A stretch of DNA of 33,028 nucleotides from Patescibacteria group bacterium (GCA_018813375.1 JAHJBU010000053.1:1-33028); one strand, 5' to 3'; numbered from the stretch's first letter, positions 1 to 13,781 are shown. Notes: a model not told the origin generated them from the letters alone. Program-made: numbers and translations.

Positions 1-579
1 AGATTTTATATTTATTGTAACGGTGAGATAGCCGAGCCTACGTATTTTAAGGAGTACAAGGATTTTCTTCGCTCAAGAACGATTGTCATCAACTACAAGA
101 ATTTCAAAAGACTAGCTCCTTGGGATTTAATCGCAAGAGTTGTCGAAGAAAAACAAGCACTAAGATCTCGCGGAAAATTTTATGAGGAGGATGGAGATCA
201 ATGCTGGTGTGTCTTTGACGTTGATGAATATTGGGATCAAAATCCGGACAAATTTAAGGCCGCCATAAAACTGGCTAGAGAAAATAATATCTTATTAGCC
301 TGGAGTAACGAGTGCTTTGAGCTTTGGTACCTACTGCATTTTCAAGTTTTGAATACAGGCGTTCCCCGCAACGATTACCACACTAAACTCGAGAGACATT
401 TTCGAAGATCAGGAATGCAGCCATACACCAAGAACTGTAGTGTTTTCACTCAGATAATCGAAAAGCAATCTGAAGCAATTAGAAACGCCAAACGGATATA
501 TAAGACAAGCAAGGTGGAAAGAAACCCCTCGACTGCGGTATTTAAGCTAGCTGAGGAGATAAACAAACATTTTGGATAA
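1..579 (+). CDS. RloB-like protein (AbiLii-type Toprim-like partner of an AAA ATPase); N-terminus lies upstream of the window
   Basis: Frame 1 is open from base 1 to TAA 577-579; the track shows only the part from M at 349. The translation contains CWCVFDVDEYWDQ ... NILLAWSNECFELWYLLHF, the RloB-family signature (acidic DxD patch, then SN-CFE-W-LLHF). Confidence 0.8.
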   Translation, partial: RFYIYCNGEIAEPTYFKEYKDFLRSRTIVINYKNFKRLAPWDLIARVVEEKQALRSRGKFYEEDGDQCWCVFDVDEYWDQNPDKFKAAIKLARENNILLAWSNECFELWYLLHFQVLNTGVPRNDYHTKLERHFRRSGMQPYTKNCSVFTQIIEKQSEAIRNAKRIYKTSKVERNPSTAVFKLAEEINKHFG

Positions 580-586
580 ACGTTAT

Positions 587-2035
587 ATGGAAACTAAAGA
601 ACTCGATCTTGATGAAATTGAAAAAATAATAGAATCCGGTAACCCGTCCGGATTTTTAGGGGTGATTGAAACATCTTATTTTGAGTTTAGGGAGAAGCCG
701 TATTATCCTGATAATGAGCACAACACGGTTAGCAGAGAAAAATCCCGCCTAGAGTTGTTAAAAGACTTCAGTTCTGTAGCTAACAGTGGTGGTGGCTATG
801 TGGTTATTGGATTAAAGCCTAAACTTGATCCTTCTAAATTCAACCTGGAATTTGTAGATGAAGTCAAAGGCGTTAAACAAGAAAGCATTAAATTACAAAG
901 TTGGCTTGATACTTTATCATCTTTTTTGACCCCTTCATTTCAATCTGGCTTCTTGAATTATGGTTTTATTGGTTCCAAGGAAAATCAAGTTTTTTGGCTA
1001 AAAGTACCCGACGCTAAAGATATTGGATGTTATCCCTTTATTTTAAACAAGGATCAATGGGTGACAGAAGATAATTCACTTCTTCATGGTCGTTTATTGG
1101 GAGTATATTTTCGTGATGGAGCGGAGAATAAACATTTGTTGAGCGCTGAGAAAATCCAGGAATCTATCGCCTACACTCTCTCTGGTAAAAAAGGTAAGTT
1201 GTCGGAACAATCCTTTAGTGGTTTAGAAGCAAAAATAGATCAAATTTTAGCCTTACAAAATGTGTCGCCAACAAAAACATTGGACCTTGAATCCAAAAAA
1301 AAAGACATTCTAACGAGATTTAGTGAAAGACTAGATCAGGATTCAGATTTTTTTTATTTAATTGCAGTTCCAGAAAAGCCTGTTTCAGTTCGAGATTTTT
1401 GGTTAAAGGGTGAAAATACCCTCTACGAACTAATAAAAGACCCACCCACACTTCGCCATATGGGGTGGGATCTACACACGGCTATGTCAGAATATCCAGA
1501 ACCCAAAGGTACCGCGTGGGAATCGACAAATGGTGATAGAAAAATTGTATATGTAGATAAGGATGGGGTTATCGCTGTAGGGGGAACAATTCAAGAATTT
1601 TTAGATTGGGGCTTGAATCGAGACAGTACTTCAGACGTATTGAATATAAACGCCTTCGCACTTGTTGAATTTATAACCAGTTACTTCAATTTTTTAACTG
1701 CTTATGCAAAAAAGTTTGTTCAATCAAGTTTAAACTATCAGGTTTATGGAGGGTTTTCCCTACGTCTCAATAAAAAATATAGACTGGTGTTTACCATGGG
1801 TGAAAATGGCAAGCCAGCTTTCTTCAGTCAGCAATCAAACGAGATAGATCAGAATGAATGGGATTTTGGAGTTTGTAGTCCGATATTTGAAAATAGCACT
1901 CAACCCTTTGCTGCGAATTTAGTAAGCACTATTTACGCTAGCGGCTTCGGGTATGTAGAAGACAGTCCGCCTTATCTGGTTAAGAAAGAGAAGTCCTGGG
2001 TTATTAATGAGGAGGCTTACACAAAAGCGAGTTGA
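587..2035 (+). CDS. AlbA_2/Schlafen-like N-terminal domain protein with a large uncharacterised C-terminal region
   Basis: Track ORF 572-2035; ATG at 587, and an alternative TTG at 572 overlaps the RloB stop. The N-terminus ETSYFEFREK ... FSSVANSGGGYVVIGLK resembles the AlbA_2 pattern (E-x-LEFK ... AfaNt-GG-lviGv). I recognise no motif in the remaining ~330 aa. Confidence 0.5.
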   Translation: METKELDLDEIEKIIESGNPSGFLGVIETSYFEFREKPYYPDNEHNTVSREKSRLELLKDFSSVANSGGGYVVIGLKPKLDPSKFNLEFVDEVKGVKQESIKLQSWLDTLSSFLTPSFQSGFLNYGFIGSKENQVFWLKVPDAKDIGCYPFILNKDQWVTEDNSLLHGRLLGVYFRDGAENKHLLSAEKIQESIAYTLSGKKGKLSEQSFSGLEAKIDQILALQNVSPTKTLDLESKKKDILTRFSERLDQDSDFFYLIAVPEKPVSVRDFWLKGENTLYELIKDPPTLRHMGWDLHTAMSEYPEPKGTAWESTNGDRKIVYVDKDGVIAVGGTIQEFLDWGLNRDSTSDVLNINAFALVEFITSYFNFLTAYAKKFVQSSLNYQVYGGFSLRLNKKYRLVFTMGENGKPAFFSQQSNEIDQNEWDFGVCSPIFENSTQPFAANLVSTIYASGFGYVEDSPPYLVKKEKSWVINEEAYTKAS

Positions 2036-2538
2036 AAAGAACTATGGCCGACATTCAAGAAGAATACCAACTAACAGAAGAAAGGATGCACAAGTTTCTC
2101 TTACTTTTGGATATATACTTCGAAATTATCAAGGGAAATGTTAAACACCCTAGAGCTAAAGAATGGGCCAGTCTCCTTTTGGAAATCGTGTATTCGTATT
2201 TTTATTCTGTAATAGATGATAGGGAGGATTCAATAAACGTGTTTAGAATTTGGAAAAAGAAATACCCAGACCATCAAGCAGAGATATCTCGAGTTGAAGA
2301 AAAAATAGCACCACACAAAGCTGATTTTATGAAGCTTAGACACAACGTAGGGTTCCATGGTTCCACGAGCCGGAAGGGTAATAAAGTTGGTATGCAGCTT
2401 TTTGAAAAGGTCGATGGTCAGATGGCGTTGGATTTCATGCTCGCTGTGCGGAATCTATCGACACACTTAATAAGTTTACACAAAAAAATTGATAAAAAAT
2501 TGCCGACCTATCAATGTGTTATTTGTAATGACCAATGA
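2032..2538 (+). CDS. hypothetical protein (168 aa, predicted helical)
   Basis: Track ORF. Its start overlaps the upstream stop (TTGA; alternative ATG at 2044) and its stop overlaps the next start (ATGA at 2535). No recognisable motif. Confidence 0.6.
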   Translation: MKRTMADIQEEYQLTEERMHKFLLLLDIYFEIIKGNVKHPRAKEWASLLLEIVYSYFYSVIDDREDSINVFRIWKKKYPDHQAEISRVEEKIAPHKADFMKLRHNVGFHGSTSRKGNKVGMQLFEKVDGQMALDFMLAVRNLSTHLISLHKKIDKKLPTYQCVICNDQ

Positions 2539-3458
2539 AACAAGAATTAAAATATCTCACCGATTTTATCTTAAGAGTTGTTTTTCAGTGGGTAACTCTT
2601 CTTCTTTTACTGCCAACTTTATATGATTTTCTCCATGTTTATTTCCCTGAGCCAATAAAATCATATGAGCTTTCCTCTGATTTAAGGTTAGCTTTTATGA
2701 TTTTTGCGGTGTTTATTGCTATTTACAAAGTGTGGAGAAAGGAACATTCAGCCCTGCTTTCCATTCAGGGAAGGAAAACAAGGTTCACCGTAACTCCTGG
2801 TCTGTATAAGATCCAGGTTGCAAAGCATCTACAACAAATAGACAAGAAAATAGATCGGTTAAAGTCCGAATTACCTAATCTTGAGTCAGAGGGTATATTC
2901 GATCGGTTAATGGTATCGCCCTTTTCAGGGGGTAGGAAAACACAACAGAGTGTTCAAGAATACATAGAGTCTTTGATGGAGTATAAGGAAGAGCTGATAG
3001 CATTTTGTGAAAAGCATAAGGGCATATTGGGAATTGATGTTACTCTAGAATCTGACAAGTATGATGAAAATTTATCGGTTGAGTTTATTTTAAAAACAGG
3101 AAAGATTGTTCGATCGCTTGAGTTAGATTGCCCCTGGTTACCTTCAGATCCAAGTAAAGATAGATTATCTTTTTTGGGAACAGTTGATATAAGGGAAAGA
3201 GATGTTTACCGAACGAATCTTGAATATGATGACAAAGTAATAAGTTGTAATTTGAAATATTTAAAGAAGGGTCAACCAGTCTTGTTTATTAACGAAGGGG
3301 TTTACGTGGACCCCAAAGTGCAAAAACTAAGTTTTGATGTATGTATTACGTCTAAGAATAGCGATGGATTGCAAAAATTCTCTTTCGACCAAGAGGTTGG
3401 AAAAGTTAATGACTACAAGGACATTTCTGAATTAGAAGAGTTTAATAGAGAGCTTTGA
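2535..3458 (+). CDS. membrane protein with two N-terminal TM helices and an uncharacterised soluble C-terminal domain
   Basis: Track ORF, ATGA-coupled to the upstream gene. Hydrophobic stretches VVFQWVTLLLLLPTLYDFL and LAFMIFAVFIAIYKVW lie near the N-terminus. Confidence 0.65.
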   Translation: MKQELKYLTDFILRVVFQWVTLLLLLPTLYDFLHVYFPEPIKSYELSSDLRLAFMIFAVFIAIYKVWRKEHSALLSIQGRKTRFTVTPGLYKIQVAKHLQQIDKKIDRLKSELPNLESEGIFDRLMVSPFSGGRKTQQSVQEYIESLMEYKEELIAFCEKHKGILGIDVTLESDKYDENLSVEFILKTGKIVRSLELDCPWLPSDPSKDRLSFLGTVDIRERDVYRTNLEYDDKVISCNLKYLKKGQPVLFINEGVYVDPKVQKLSFDVCITSKNSDGLQKFSFDQEVGKVNDYKDISELEEFNREL

Positions 3459-3483
3459 CATAGGCTGGTGCAGGTTCTACGGT

Positions 3484-3510
3484 GTTGACATCTCATTTCC
3501 CAATGTCAAC
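3484..3510. terminator. 8-bp inverted repeat GTTGACAT / ATGTCAAC (11-nt loop) between convergent genes; a third GTTGACAT lies at ~3525
   Basis: Read directly from the sequence. It sits between the stop of 2535-3458 and the stop of the minus-strand recombinase fragment. There is no clear T-run, so a terminator role is weak; it could instead be a recombinase site remnant. Confidence 0.25.
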
Positions 3511-4033
3511 AAAATCCCCTGATAGTTGACATTCGCCAAGTGGCTTGTAGGTAACTTGTGCTGGCAGTAGAGTGCCTTTTGATGGTTTCTGTCAGTTCGT
3601 CTTTTTCTTTGGAGTACTGCTTGAATTTGCGGTTATAAAATTCCTGGGTGATTTTTTCATCGAGTTTGTCATCGTATAATTTGTCCATTCGCCTGCTAAC
3701 CGCCTCGTAGCGTGTTTCCAGCTCGCCCACGGTGCTGTTGTGATACTGGACTTCGTCCTGATGGCTTTCTTTGAGAGCTTTTTTTAACCATTCGACGATC
3801 CTTTGGTTTTTGAGTTTCAGGTTGTCAAAGCCCGACAGGAGTTGTTCTTCGACTCCTGGCTCTTTCACCCAAGTTTCCTGGGTGCAGTCGTGGTAGTGGT
3901 TACAATGCCCGTAGTGGATTGTCCTTTGCTGTTCCCAGGTAATTAAACCATTACAGCTAGCACACTTGATTAGCCCCTGAAAGAGGTATGAGTGCTTTCT
4001 GTATTTTGGGGTAGTTTTTGGGTTAATGGACAA
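3506..4033 (-). pseudogene. large serine recombinase, C-terminal fragment only (zinc-ribbon plus coiled-coil part; catalytic N-terminal domain missing)
   Basis: YLFQGLIKCASCNGLITWEQQRTIHYGHCNHYHDC matches the recombinase zinc beta-ribbon (Y-L-GL-KC-x-CG). It is followed by a coiled-coil-like stretch (YDDKLDEKITQEFYNRKFKQY). The apparent start codon lies inside the terminal IR of the adjacent IS, and no resolvase domain occurs on the other side of the IS. Confidence 0.65.
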
Positions 4034-5128
4034 TTTGCGTTGGTTTTTTAGTTAATTTTCATTGATATTTCCGTCAAATATGTAATAATTAGCACTTTAA
4101 AAGTGCTAGATAGGTGTATTTATGAAAAAAAATGGTGTCAGAACTGCGGTGAAAAGTTACAAAAATGGGGTAAAAATAGAGATGGTTCTCAACGATATTT
4201 TTGTAAAAATTGTCAGCAAACAAAAACTAGAAAAAGACCAGAGCTAACTCAGATTAATCATAAAAAAATATTTTCAGGGTGGTTGGTGGGTAAACAAAGT
4301 CTGACTGATTTTAGTGATAAATATGACGTTTCAATAAGAACTTTAATTCGTTGGTTTACTCTCTTTTGGAGTGAAGAACCACAACCAGGAGAGACTAATA
4401 TTTCTAATCAAGTTTTAATTATTGATGGTAAATATATAGAAAAGTTAGCTACTGTTTTAGTAGCTTGCGTTACTAGAAAAGTATCTTCTTGGAGTTTTAC
4501 TCAGCGAGAAAACTATGCTAGTTGGTTAACTTTTTTTAATACTCTAGTACACAATCCTTTTGCTATTGTTTGTGATGGGCAAAAGGGAATGCTTAAAGCT
4601 ATCAAAGAAAGATTTCCTCGAGTAATTATTCAGCGTTGTCAGTTTCATGTGATGAAGTACTGTTTGAGCAAATTAACCCAGAATCCAGAGAGCAAAGCTG
4701 CTCAGGAGTTACGAAATATTGTGCTTGGGATTAGTAAAGTTAAGACAAAAGAAAATTTTAGTATTTGGTTAGCTGACTACAAAATTTGGTATCAAAACTA
4801 TTATGGATTTCTCAAAGAGAAAACTTACCAAGAACACAATTTAACTCCAACTGGTAGAAAAAGGTGGCATTACACACACGGCAGATTACACGCTGCATAC
4901 TCACACCTTAAAAATTCTTTCCCCAATCTTTTCCAATACTTAAAATACCCCAAAATTCCTAACACCACTAATTTTGTAGAAGGAGCTATCAATGCTCCAA
5001 TGCAAGAAAAGTTAAGAAATCATCGTGGACTTAAACTACCGAAAAGAAGAATTTTAATCGCTCACTATTTGAGTGTAAAACAATGATTGTTTTTAACTAA
5101 AAAACCAACGCAAATTGTCCATTAACCC
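4020..5128 (+). mobile_element. insertion sequence, ~1.1 kb, with perfect 36-bp terminal inverted repeats and a single transposase gene
   Basis: GGGTTAATGGACAATTTGCGTTGGTTTTTTAGTTAA at 4020-4055 is the exact reverse complement of 5093-5128. The flanks (…GTAGTTTTT | … | TAAAGTTAC…) show no target-site duplication. Confidence 0.85.
4103..5086 (+). CDS. DDE transposase with N-terminal zinc ribbon (IS256/Mutator-like; family assignment tentative)
   Basis: CQNCGEKLQKWGKNRDGSQRYFCKNCQ is a zinc ribbon. IVCDGQKGMLKAIKERFPRVIIQRCQFHVMKY and TTNFVEGAIN resemble the IS256-type D..G..Ai...fP...QRC.vH and TN..E motifs; ISL3-like is not excluded. GTG start at 4103. Confidence 0.75.
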   Translation: MLDRCIYEKKWCQNCGEKLQKWGKNRDGSQRYFCKNCQQTKTRKRPELTQINHKKIFSGWLVGKQSLTDFSDKYDVSIRTLIRWFTLFWSEEPQPGETNISNQVLIIDGKYIEKLATVLVACVTRKVSSWSFTQRENYASWLTFFNTLVHNPFAIVCDGQKGMLKAIKERFPRVIIQRCQFHVMKYCLSKLTQNPESKAAQELRNIVLGISKVKTKENFSIWLADYKIWYQNYYGFLKEKTYQEHNLTPTGRKRWHYTHGRLHAAYSHLKNSFPNLFQYLKYPKIPNTTNFVEGAINAPMQEKLRNHRGLKLPKRRILIAHYLSVKQ

Positions 5129-5155
5129 TAAAGTTACAATTAGCGACCGCGAGAG

Positions 5156-10184: not shown

Positions 10185-10214
10185 AAGTCCTAACTTGGTC
10201 TAACGCGGGGAGCA
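10185..10214 (+). repeat. cassette-junction motif, copy A
   Basis: AAGTCCTAACTTGGTCTAACGCGGGGAGCA. Confidence 0.8.
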
Positions 10215-13265: not shown

Positions 13266-13781
13266 ATGGAACAACAAAAATGTTATGAGAATTACCCTGC
13301 TTGGATTGTAGTAATCTCAAATCTTATTTCATTTTCCACATATTTCATAGGCGGGTTTATTGTTTACCAAATTGGTTCCTTGTGGCTCGCGTTATACATA
13401 CTATATATCTTAATTTTGGAATTAAAATTGTTGGGGGGACATTGTGTGAACTGTTACTACTACGGAAAGATCTGTGCTTTTGGGAAAGGAAGATTAAGCA
13501 GCTTATTCTTCAAAAAAGGTGAATCAAGTAAATTTTGTAAAAATAAAATGACCTGGAAAGATATTGTTCCAGACTTTCTGGTTTCAGTTATACCTATCAT
13601 TGTCGGAATTATCTCCCTAATAATTCATTTCAACTGGTTAATCCTGTTTTTTATGGTGTTACTTTTTATTCTTGGGTTTTCTGGAAGCGCAATAGTAAGA
13701 AGTCAGCTGGCATGTAAATTTTGTAAGCAACGGAAACTAGGGTGTCCAGCTGAAAAATTATTTGAAAAAACTAAAAAGTGA
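13266..13781 (+). CDS. Cys-rich integral membrane protein (about 4 TM segments)
   Basis: Track ORF with long hydrophobic segments and CxxC pairs (CVNCYYYGKIC; CKFCKQRKLGC). Confidence 0.65.
   Translation: MEQQKCYENYPAWIVVISNLISFSTYFIGGFIVYQIGSLWLALYILYILILELKLLGGHCVNCYYYGKICAFGKGRLSSLFFKKGESSKFCKNKMTWKDIVPDFLVSVIPIIVGIISLIIHFNWLILFFMVLLFILGFSGSAIVRSQLACKFCKQRKLGCPAEKLFEKTKK

Follow-up and report, generated by a model that had tools for sequence, protein, structure and literature searches.

The four genes that open a 33,028-nt contig from a Patescibacteria group bacterium (GCA_018813375.1, JAHJBU010000053.1:1-33028; here called the window) are probably a stack of independent anti-phage modules in a mobile island anchored at a tRNA-Asn gene, rather than one system. 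The window is contig C8 from its first base, in a genome of 1.13 Mb that is 99% complete and lies in 123 contigs. Positions 1-3458 are occupied by four plus-strand open reading frames (ORFs) arranged head to tail: abiLii/rloB (1..579), for the TOPRIM-like second component of an AbiL (RloAB-type) pair; a gene for a 482-aa prokaryotic Schlafen protein (pSlfn, 587..2035); p168 (2044..2538), for a small cytoplasmic protein modelled as a four-helix bundle; and p307 (2535..3458), for a 307-aa membrane protein with two transmembrane (TM) segments. A preliminary description of this DNA had proposed that the last three genes are an unusual extension of an AbiL-like abortive-infection system. Judged by its sequence, the locus is instead a defence island of known kinds, AbiL and pSlfn, together with two uncharacterised accessory families. 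What is new here is a member of the recently characterised pSlfn nucleases and two small unnamed families; the AbiL pair is standard.

Gene order in relatives carries this reading. In 6/6 related AbiL loci, none of the pSlfn, p168 and p307 homologs follows RloB. Conversely, Pfam tables, tblastn and hidden Markov model (HMM) searches found no adjacent RloB, AbiLi or AAA_21 gene in about 20 distinct pSlfn loci, which were drawn from metagenomes and species-representative genomes. The downstream genes are also separable from one another. pSlfn and p168 occur together without p307 in L005/6 and L027-29, and the trio is found only in the window and in L030 (91-95% identical). L027-29 are as close to the window as L030 is, and in them what comes after p168 is not p307 but a hairpin, a T-run and a gene on the reverse strand. 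The proposed AbiL extension did not survive these comparisons: the three genes are absent after RloB in relatives, pSlfn loci lack AbiL, and p168 and p307 have other partners. Nor could conservation of the gene order be found, as the four genes are syntenic nowhere else, near-identical strains possibly excepted. Among the outcomes that the preliminary description had named as counting against it was a lack of synteny elsewhere joined with the lack of an upstream ATPase; the first half was observed, but AbiLi is present on a second contig of the assembly, C40. Its broader idea of a defence locus is borne out by the defence and mobile-element setting. A PADLOC run identified AbiLii for RloB and AbiLi for the C40 ATPase, but returned no match for the three downstream proteins.

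RloB (1-579) matches the Pfam RloB family over the full model (E=7e-41, positions 1-195) and PADLOC AbiLii (E=4e-26). The gene is 5′-open and lacks its 8 N-terminal codons, because the contig begins at window position 1; full-length relatives have 198–201 aa. Residues D73 and D75 (DxD) and E107 are invariant in 8 aligned sequences. The usual Toprim "CEG" Glu reads "CNG" in the AbiLii clade of the window, with a Glu two residues on, in a region where the alignment is uncertain; this site of altered Glu position corresponds to residues 5-12 of the window protein, CNGEIAEP. RloB was found in 8/140 genomes of the same family, and in a same-genus genome the AbiL pair sits between uvrB and uvrA. The closest AbiL relative, L050, has an ATPase 80% and an RloB 71% identical to those studied here, and its homology to the window ends exactly at the RloB stop, beyond which lie 222 nt of non-coding sequence with stops in all frames. 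AbiL has been described as a two-component system in which an ABC-ATPase is paired with a TOPRIM/OLD protein, and is grouped with PARIS and RloAB (PMC13064643).

The expectation that an ATPase lies just upstream of the window is supported. The 3′ end of C40 encodes a 426-aa AbiLi ATPase (PADLOC AbiLi, E=1.5e-96; Pfam AAA_21, E=2.5e-36), the sole such ATPase in the assembly, and 9 nt on a copy of RloB that is 91% identical over the first 516 nt of the window (1-516 versus C40:22789-23304). A homologous AAA_21 ATPase lies directly upstream of RloB in all 6 related loci that were fetched (6/6). All 44 positions at which the RloB copies differ fall within nt 81-457, with nt 1-80 and 458-516 identical; they change 8 amino acids (dS 0.46, dN/dS 0.047), a mosaic that points to recombination between the alleles of different strains or to paralogs undergoing gene conversion. 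Because the ends of the overlap are identical and both contigs break inside it, C40 appears to run into C8 as a strain-variant bubble. We also counted for this join that tRNA-Asn and an intact recombinase on C40 and the tRNA-3′-end junction copies on C8 are all in one orientation. Most likely, C40 joins the start of the window and gives a complete AbiL pair.

The second gene product is by homology and predicted fold a member of the pSlfn family, the residue at the catalytic Lys position aside. It matches Pfam SLFN_AlbA_2 (E=6.7e-7, residues 33-188 of a 487-aa form), which upholds the earlier AlbA_2/Schlafen call and leaves about 300 residues without annotation, and the same domain is present in 32/32 full-length family members, down to 31% identity. 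An AlphaFold2 model (pLDDT 83.8) has two domains, an N-terminal Slfn/AlbA_2 nuclease domain (about 1-200) and a C-terminal alpha+beta domain (about 235-482), with a disordered linker at 201-229. In Foldseek searches the N-domain retrieved SLFN13/5/11/14 and the SAMD9 tRNase domain (E from 4e-4, probability 0.97-1.0). A further match was to a viral "Divergent AAA domain" (E=3.5e-6), and the best PDB sequence match was CbCash, a CRISPR-associated Schlafen. Prokaryotic Schlafens were shown in 2026 to defend against phage via tRNA cutting (PMC13056530; PMC13462974). Their catalytic motif is Ex4(E/D)xK, with phage defence and tRNA cleavage demonstrated (PMC13056530), and in CbCash (Nat Commun 2026) the K24A substitution abolishes activity (PMC13462974). 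In the window protein the motif is Ex4ExR, at E28/E33/R35. Residues E28, E33, D60 and N66-GGG70 are invariant in the family, and position 35 is R in 30/32 members and K in the other two (2/32). The preliminary description had offered "sensor plus membrane effector" as one possibility for the downstream genes; because its AlbA_2/Schlafen domain bears a catalytic motif that belongs to a family of nuclease effectors, this protein is more likely an effector than a sensor.

The C-terminal domain (235-482) is well folded in the model, mostly with pLDDT above 85, and no Pfam family was found for it in any of the 32 members. It also exists separately from Slfn, fused to a ribbon-helix-helix (RHH) domain (L036, P0033). 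Since it is found RHH-fused without Slfn, it behaves as a portable module, which would fit a sensor or regulatory role; variable sensor-domain fusions are a feature of pSlfns, 17% of them unannotated (PMC13056530; PMC13462974). We regard it as a candidate sensor or regulatory domain. At L036 1216-3346 (G137:C24), an RHH_1 domain (E=4.7e-8) is joined to the C-domain (HMM E=2.6e-21), and a Shedu SduA_C gene follows 55 nt on (E=1.5e-19). At L023 a full pSlfn has another SduA_C protein 18 nt downstream. The two loci hint at a recurrent tie between the C-domain and Shedu. A fold like that of TATA-binding protein (TBP) was considered for the C-domain and rejected, since none of the Foldseek matches was significant (4rod_B and 7o4i_O, E about 0.5; viral TBPs, E 0.13-0.39).

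The pSlfn subfamily is rare, with members in 3/140 genomes of the family, in 0/5 of the same genus and, in a phylum sample of 401 genomes, in 0 of the remaining 400. Its neighbours include a type I restriction-modification (R-M) system (L004), Shedu SduA_C (L023), an upstream Hypoth_Ymh gene (L021) and serine-recombinase/integrase islands (L007, L009). A defence-island context is thus found both in the window, with AbiL, and elsewhere, with R-M, Shedu, Hypoth_Ymh and mobile islands. A phage origin was tried and set aside, no relatives of pSlfn or p168 being present in a viral contig collection.

p168 has 9 homologs at 52-92% identity. Its AlphaFold2 model is an all-helical four-helix bundle (pLDDT 75, pTM 0.70), in agreement with the helical protein described earlier. 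R103-x5-H109 and R140-NLST-H145 are invariant in the 10 sequences, and there is a C-terminal CxxC. No Pfam, PADLOC or NCBIfam family was found for it (in this and the other PADLOC-DB v2 searches with p168, p307 and 37 members of the p307 family, the threshold was an E of 0.01 or better), and a profile search of PDB sequences gave nothing relevant. Against the PDB, Foldseek returned helical bundles of a generic kind (best E=0.2), and none of its top 50 entries is a HEPN structure. One of the 10 homologs matches Ribonuc_2-5A at E=0.089. We tried a HEPN identity for p168 and left it as a weak possibility: the Rx4-6H motif is present, with no profile or fold behind it. p168 comes after pSlfn in L005/6, at 57-59% identity, and in L027-L030, at about 91-95%. 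In L016/17 no Schlafen gene accompanies it, and it lies after a LAGLIDADG-like gene. From these contexts p168 is a putative accessory of this pSlfn subclade, though its tie to pSlfn is loose, and our preferred guess is that it acts as a regulator or an antitoxin-like partner.

p307 carries an N-terminal two-TM hairpin, as the preliminary description had it, with hydrophobic segments at about 11-30 and 48-67, followed by a middle part of coiled-coil character (about 75-170) and a C-terminal domain rich in beta structure. Its close homologs number about 10, and a profile search over 1.84 billion proteins gave 67 representative clusters of about 300-aa proteins; the N-terminal hydrophobic hairpin is common to the family. 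Among 37 family members there was no Pfam family and no PADLOC match, and an NCBIfam search gave no family for p307. Homologs at 46-64% identity stand in other contexts: beside SIR2, beside unrelated genes or alone. In L011/12 a 59%-identical homolog lies 3 nt after a SIR2_2 gene that matches PADLOC SIR2 models; in L013 and L014/15 the homolog precedes unrelated 370-aa and 434-aa genes, respectively, between which no homology was found; and in L031-33 it is alone, adjoining a divergent HNH gene. The wider context of the family comprises 3 short metagenome loci, and the extended family occurs in 3/401 sampled genomes. Variable genes follow the other pSlfn homologs, and HMM searches turned up no divergent relative of p307 among them. 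We also considered p307 with a convergent serine recombinase as a travelling unit, from the window and L011, and rejected it, as the recombinase fragment in the window matches the C40 recombinase and not that of L011.

Two further observations concern p307 homologs. At L030 1904-1906 the homolog of the closest relative carries an in-frame TAA in place of the AAA (Lys187) of the window; contig coverage there is about 2.2x, and the stop could be decay or a sequencing error. L011 799-9429, from a Patescibacteria-type genome, is a dense defence island with a helix-turn-helix (HTH) gene and a reverse transcriptase (RVT_1), the HpaII restriction enzyme accompanied by Vsr and a cytosine methylase, and a LexA-like protein, then SIR2_2 with the p307 homolog, then a convergent serine recombinase.

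Read directly from the sequence, the gaps between the four genes are 7, 8 and -4 nt. The RloB stop (577-579) and the Schlafen ATG at 587 leave the 7-nt gap, and family alignments place the start at this ATG and not at a TTG at 572. p168 most likely starts at the ATG at 2044 (MADIQEEY...), 8 nt past the Schlafen stop, giving 164 aa rather than the 168 aa obtained from a TTG at 2032. The TTGA at 2032-2035 is probably no true start/stop overlap, because relatives L027-L030 use the 8-nt spacing. The ATGA at 2535-2538 is a true overlap at the p307 start (ATG 2535) and is common to L030. The ORFs, coordinates and shared strand given in the preliminary description stand, apart from its TTGA overlap, which the alignments make improbable. 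Comparison with close relatives gave dN/dS of 0.11-0.25 for pSlfn, p168 and p307, so the three downstream genes are real and under purifying selection. All three are single-copy in the assembly. Hydropathy confines hydrophobic segments to p307, which has two near its N terminus; RloB, pSlfn and p168 have none.

Directly upstream of abiLi lies a strong promoter-like site, TTGACA-17-CATAAT with an extended -10 (TG), which matches at 11/12 positions (L003 13469-13497, in the interval 13469-13506; C40:21468-21505). The site ends 6 nt before the ATG at L003 13504, which suggests a leaderless abiLi mRNA. An N-terminal extension, LQVKCHN, of the L050 and L054 ORFs is the conserved promoter read as protein. 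Within 1-3458 no promoter- or terminator-like site rose above shuffle expectation, and co-transcription of all five genes is plausible.

The island setting is defined by both contigs. On C40 the 3′ end of tRNA-Asn is overlapped by an intact gene for a 535-aa large serine recombinase. On C8 a repeated junction motif is a copy of this tRNA 3′ end in the same orientation, present from 10197 onward only. The first 10 kb of the window are free of such copies, and for this reason we rejected the four genes as one cassette of a tRNA-Asn junction array. Just past p307, the minus strand at 3506..4033 encodes a serine recombinase fragment, debris of the right-hand border, that corresponds to residues 263-422, is truncated at both ends and is 84% identical to the C40 recombinase (Pfam Zn_ribbon_recom). 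It is cut off by an insertion sequence (IS) on the plus strand (4016..5132), with 40-bp terminal inverted repeats (4016-4055 and 5093-5132, 97.5% identical) and a Mutator-family transposase gene at 4103-5086 (Pfam Transposase_mut, E=4e-13). Partial copies of the IS ends at contig ends C36:3-153 and C43:12745-12827 show that the element is multi-copy and breaks the assembly. With tRNA-Asn and the recombinase on C40, and the recombinase fragment and IS after p307, the four genes would lie in the tRNA-proximal part of a large mobile island, unbounded by junction copies.

Two small features flank the modules. In the 470-nt spacer upstream of abiLi, the minus strand carries a fragment resembling a tRNA 3′ half (...GGGGTAGTTCGATTCCACCCACTGAACA; L003 13335-13395, C40:21334-21394). 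It is unique in the genome, is not called by ARAGORN, and may be an old attachment-site remnant at the left edge of the AbiL module. At 3483-3511 of the window, 25 nt past the p307 stop, a perfect 9-bp inverted repeat (TGTTGACAT-N11-ATGTCAACA) overlaps the end of the recombinase-fragment ORF and could be a terminator or a recombination-site remnant.

A stack of modules would work as follows. In the first, made up of the full AbiL/RloAB pair, infection would be sensed by the ATPase, which would then set the TOPRIM nuclease free or switch it on; the analogy here is with PARIS and OLD-type systems. In the second, pSlfn would cut tRNA and halt translation once its C-domain senses a phage cue, as the characterised pSlfns suggest, with p168 as a putative accessory of this subclade. 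The third would be p307, a predicted two-TM protein that elsewhere stands beside unrelated genes, including one of SIR2 NADase type. To judge from their spacing, the modules, joined nearly without spacers, are probably co-transcribed from the strong promoter before abiLi.

Several points weigh against this reading. A single operon-encoded system would look the same, with its genes 7, 8 and -4 nt apart on one strand and neither a promoter nor a terminator between them, and cross-talk between modules is possible. Most of the comparison loci are metagenome contigs, some of them short, and the p168 and p307 families have about 10 close members each. The contiguity of C40 and C8 is deduced from their overlap, and because a dS of 0.46 between the RloB variants is high, two paralogous AbiL loci are possible instead. 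Nuclease activity of pSlfn is not assured, because the catalytic Lys is Arg in 30/32 members and K24A kills CbCash. The defence role of this locus is itself a prediction from sequence. The tight one-strand spacing behind a single strong promoter, with no internal terminator, is what would be expected had AbiLi/AbiLii recently recruited pSlfn, p168 and p307, so that five proteins serve one pathway. We think this quite improbable: the downstream genes are missing from 6/6 AbiL relatives and AbiL from about 20 pSlfn loci, the RloB stop codon is exactly where homology to the nearest AbiL locus ends, and the published description of AbiL has two components (PMC13064643).

The three downstream genes might form a system of their own, apart from AbiL, with pSlfn as the RNase effector together with its sensor, p168 as a regulator or a further effector, and p307 as an anchor or effector in the membrane. 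This would account for the same order, 8-nt gap and ATGA overlap in L030, for purifying selection on all three genes and for the return of pSlfn with p168 at 57-59% identity in L005/6. It is nonetheless unlikely, since L027-29 (about 91%) and L005/6 have no p307, p307 homologs (46-64%) keep company with SIR2 or other genes or stand alone, and most pSlfn homologs are without either partner; the L030 p307 has an in-frame stop as well, though on a low-coverage contig. The downstream genes might also have nothing to do with defence, the AlbA_2 protein being a nucleic-acid-binding regulator or mobile-element maintenance factor and p168 and p307 unrelated cargo. It is consistent with this that 30% of pSlfn genes lie away from known defence genes (PMC13056530), that the catalytic Lys is Arg in the window pSlfn, that a 62%-identical homolog in L026 sits between a polyprenyl synthase gene and a LysM gene, and that the three proteins lack a PADLOC match. 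Yet the acidic pair and other residues of the active-site region are invariant across a family diverged to 31% identity, homologs occur repeatedly near R-M, Shedu, Hypoth_Ymh, SIR2, HEPN_AbiU2 and integrase islands, and the distribution is sporadic and mobile; we give a non-defence role very little credence. A stack of independent modules remains the reading that we prefer.

CPR (Candidate Phyla Radiation)/Patescibacteria have tiny genomes and have long been held to be poor in phage defence. Here an AbiL pair and a Schlafen-type nuclease would be stacked in a tRNA-Asn island of such a genome. The pSlfn family would extend the 2026 work in three ways, with a clade that has Arg at the catalytic Lys position, an unannotated C-domain that is also found on an RHH regulator beside Shedu, and a small conserved partner protein, p168. 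The locus also counsels caution when new systems are sought through operons: where a genome is very compact, genes can overlap or abut without forming one system. A bolder proposal, which we hold to be doubtful, makes p307 the founder of an undescribed two-TM, coiled-coil family that serves as a shared partner (anchor, sensor or pore) of interchangeable cytoplasmic effectors, namely SIR2 in L011, Schlafen with p168 in the window and the 370- and 434-aa proteins, with the pSlfn C-domain as a new portable phage-sensing module that an RHH regulator beside Shedu has also taken up. Were this true, parts of one or two new defence architectures carried by CPR bacteria would be present in the locus.

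Among known systems, the first module most resembles AbiL of Lactococcus and RloAB of Campylobacter, in the group with PARIS (AriA/AriB). It shares with them a full-length RloB/AbiLii domain, an upstream AbiLi/AAA_21 ATPase, a two-gene unit and the DxD motif; it differs in that the window pair runs nearly spacerless into three extra genes foreign to AbiL, and in that the first Toprim Glu position is Asn in the window clade, with a Glu two residues later. The setting recalls composite islands built by large serine recombinases at tRNA genes (SCC-like arrays), with tRNA-Asn and a recombinase, junction copies on C8 and a recombinase fragment after p307. In contrast to such arrays, no junction copy lies inside or beside 1-3458, and the first in the window is at 10197. 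p168 is similar to HEPN RNases (AbiU2, the RNase L/Ire1 KEN domain) in being small and all-helical, with RNxxxH (R140-H145) and a second Rx5H. Unlike them it matches no HEPN profile significantly, and the motif is mid-helix in the model, not at a helix start. p307 is linked to SIR2 two-gene defence systems by the homolog directly after a SIR2_2 gene in L011/12, but it fits no described SIR2 partner, and the window copy follows pSlfn and p168 instead.

The closest likeness of the second module is to the described pSlfns (RorSlfn5, EcoSlfn7; Nat Microbiol 2026, PMC13056530) and to CbCash (PMC13462974), with which it shares the N-terminal Slfn/AlbA_2 fold, the Ex4E pair at the start of the domain, the combination of a nuclease domain with a variable C-terminal domain, and the defence-island and mobile-element setting. 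The window protein resembles the "unannotated fusion" class of pSlfns and Cluster 4 of the Cash paper, whose members have a C-domain of unknown function and lie near R-M genes. It departs from described pSlfns in the Arg that replaces the catalytic Lys in 30/32 members and in a C-domain outside the named classes (HisKinase, HTH, Ig-like, DUF262 and others), and its family is further set apart by a C-domain that is also RHH-fused and by a subclade with a small helical partner gene, p168.

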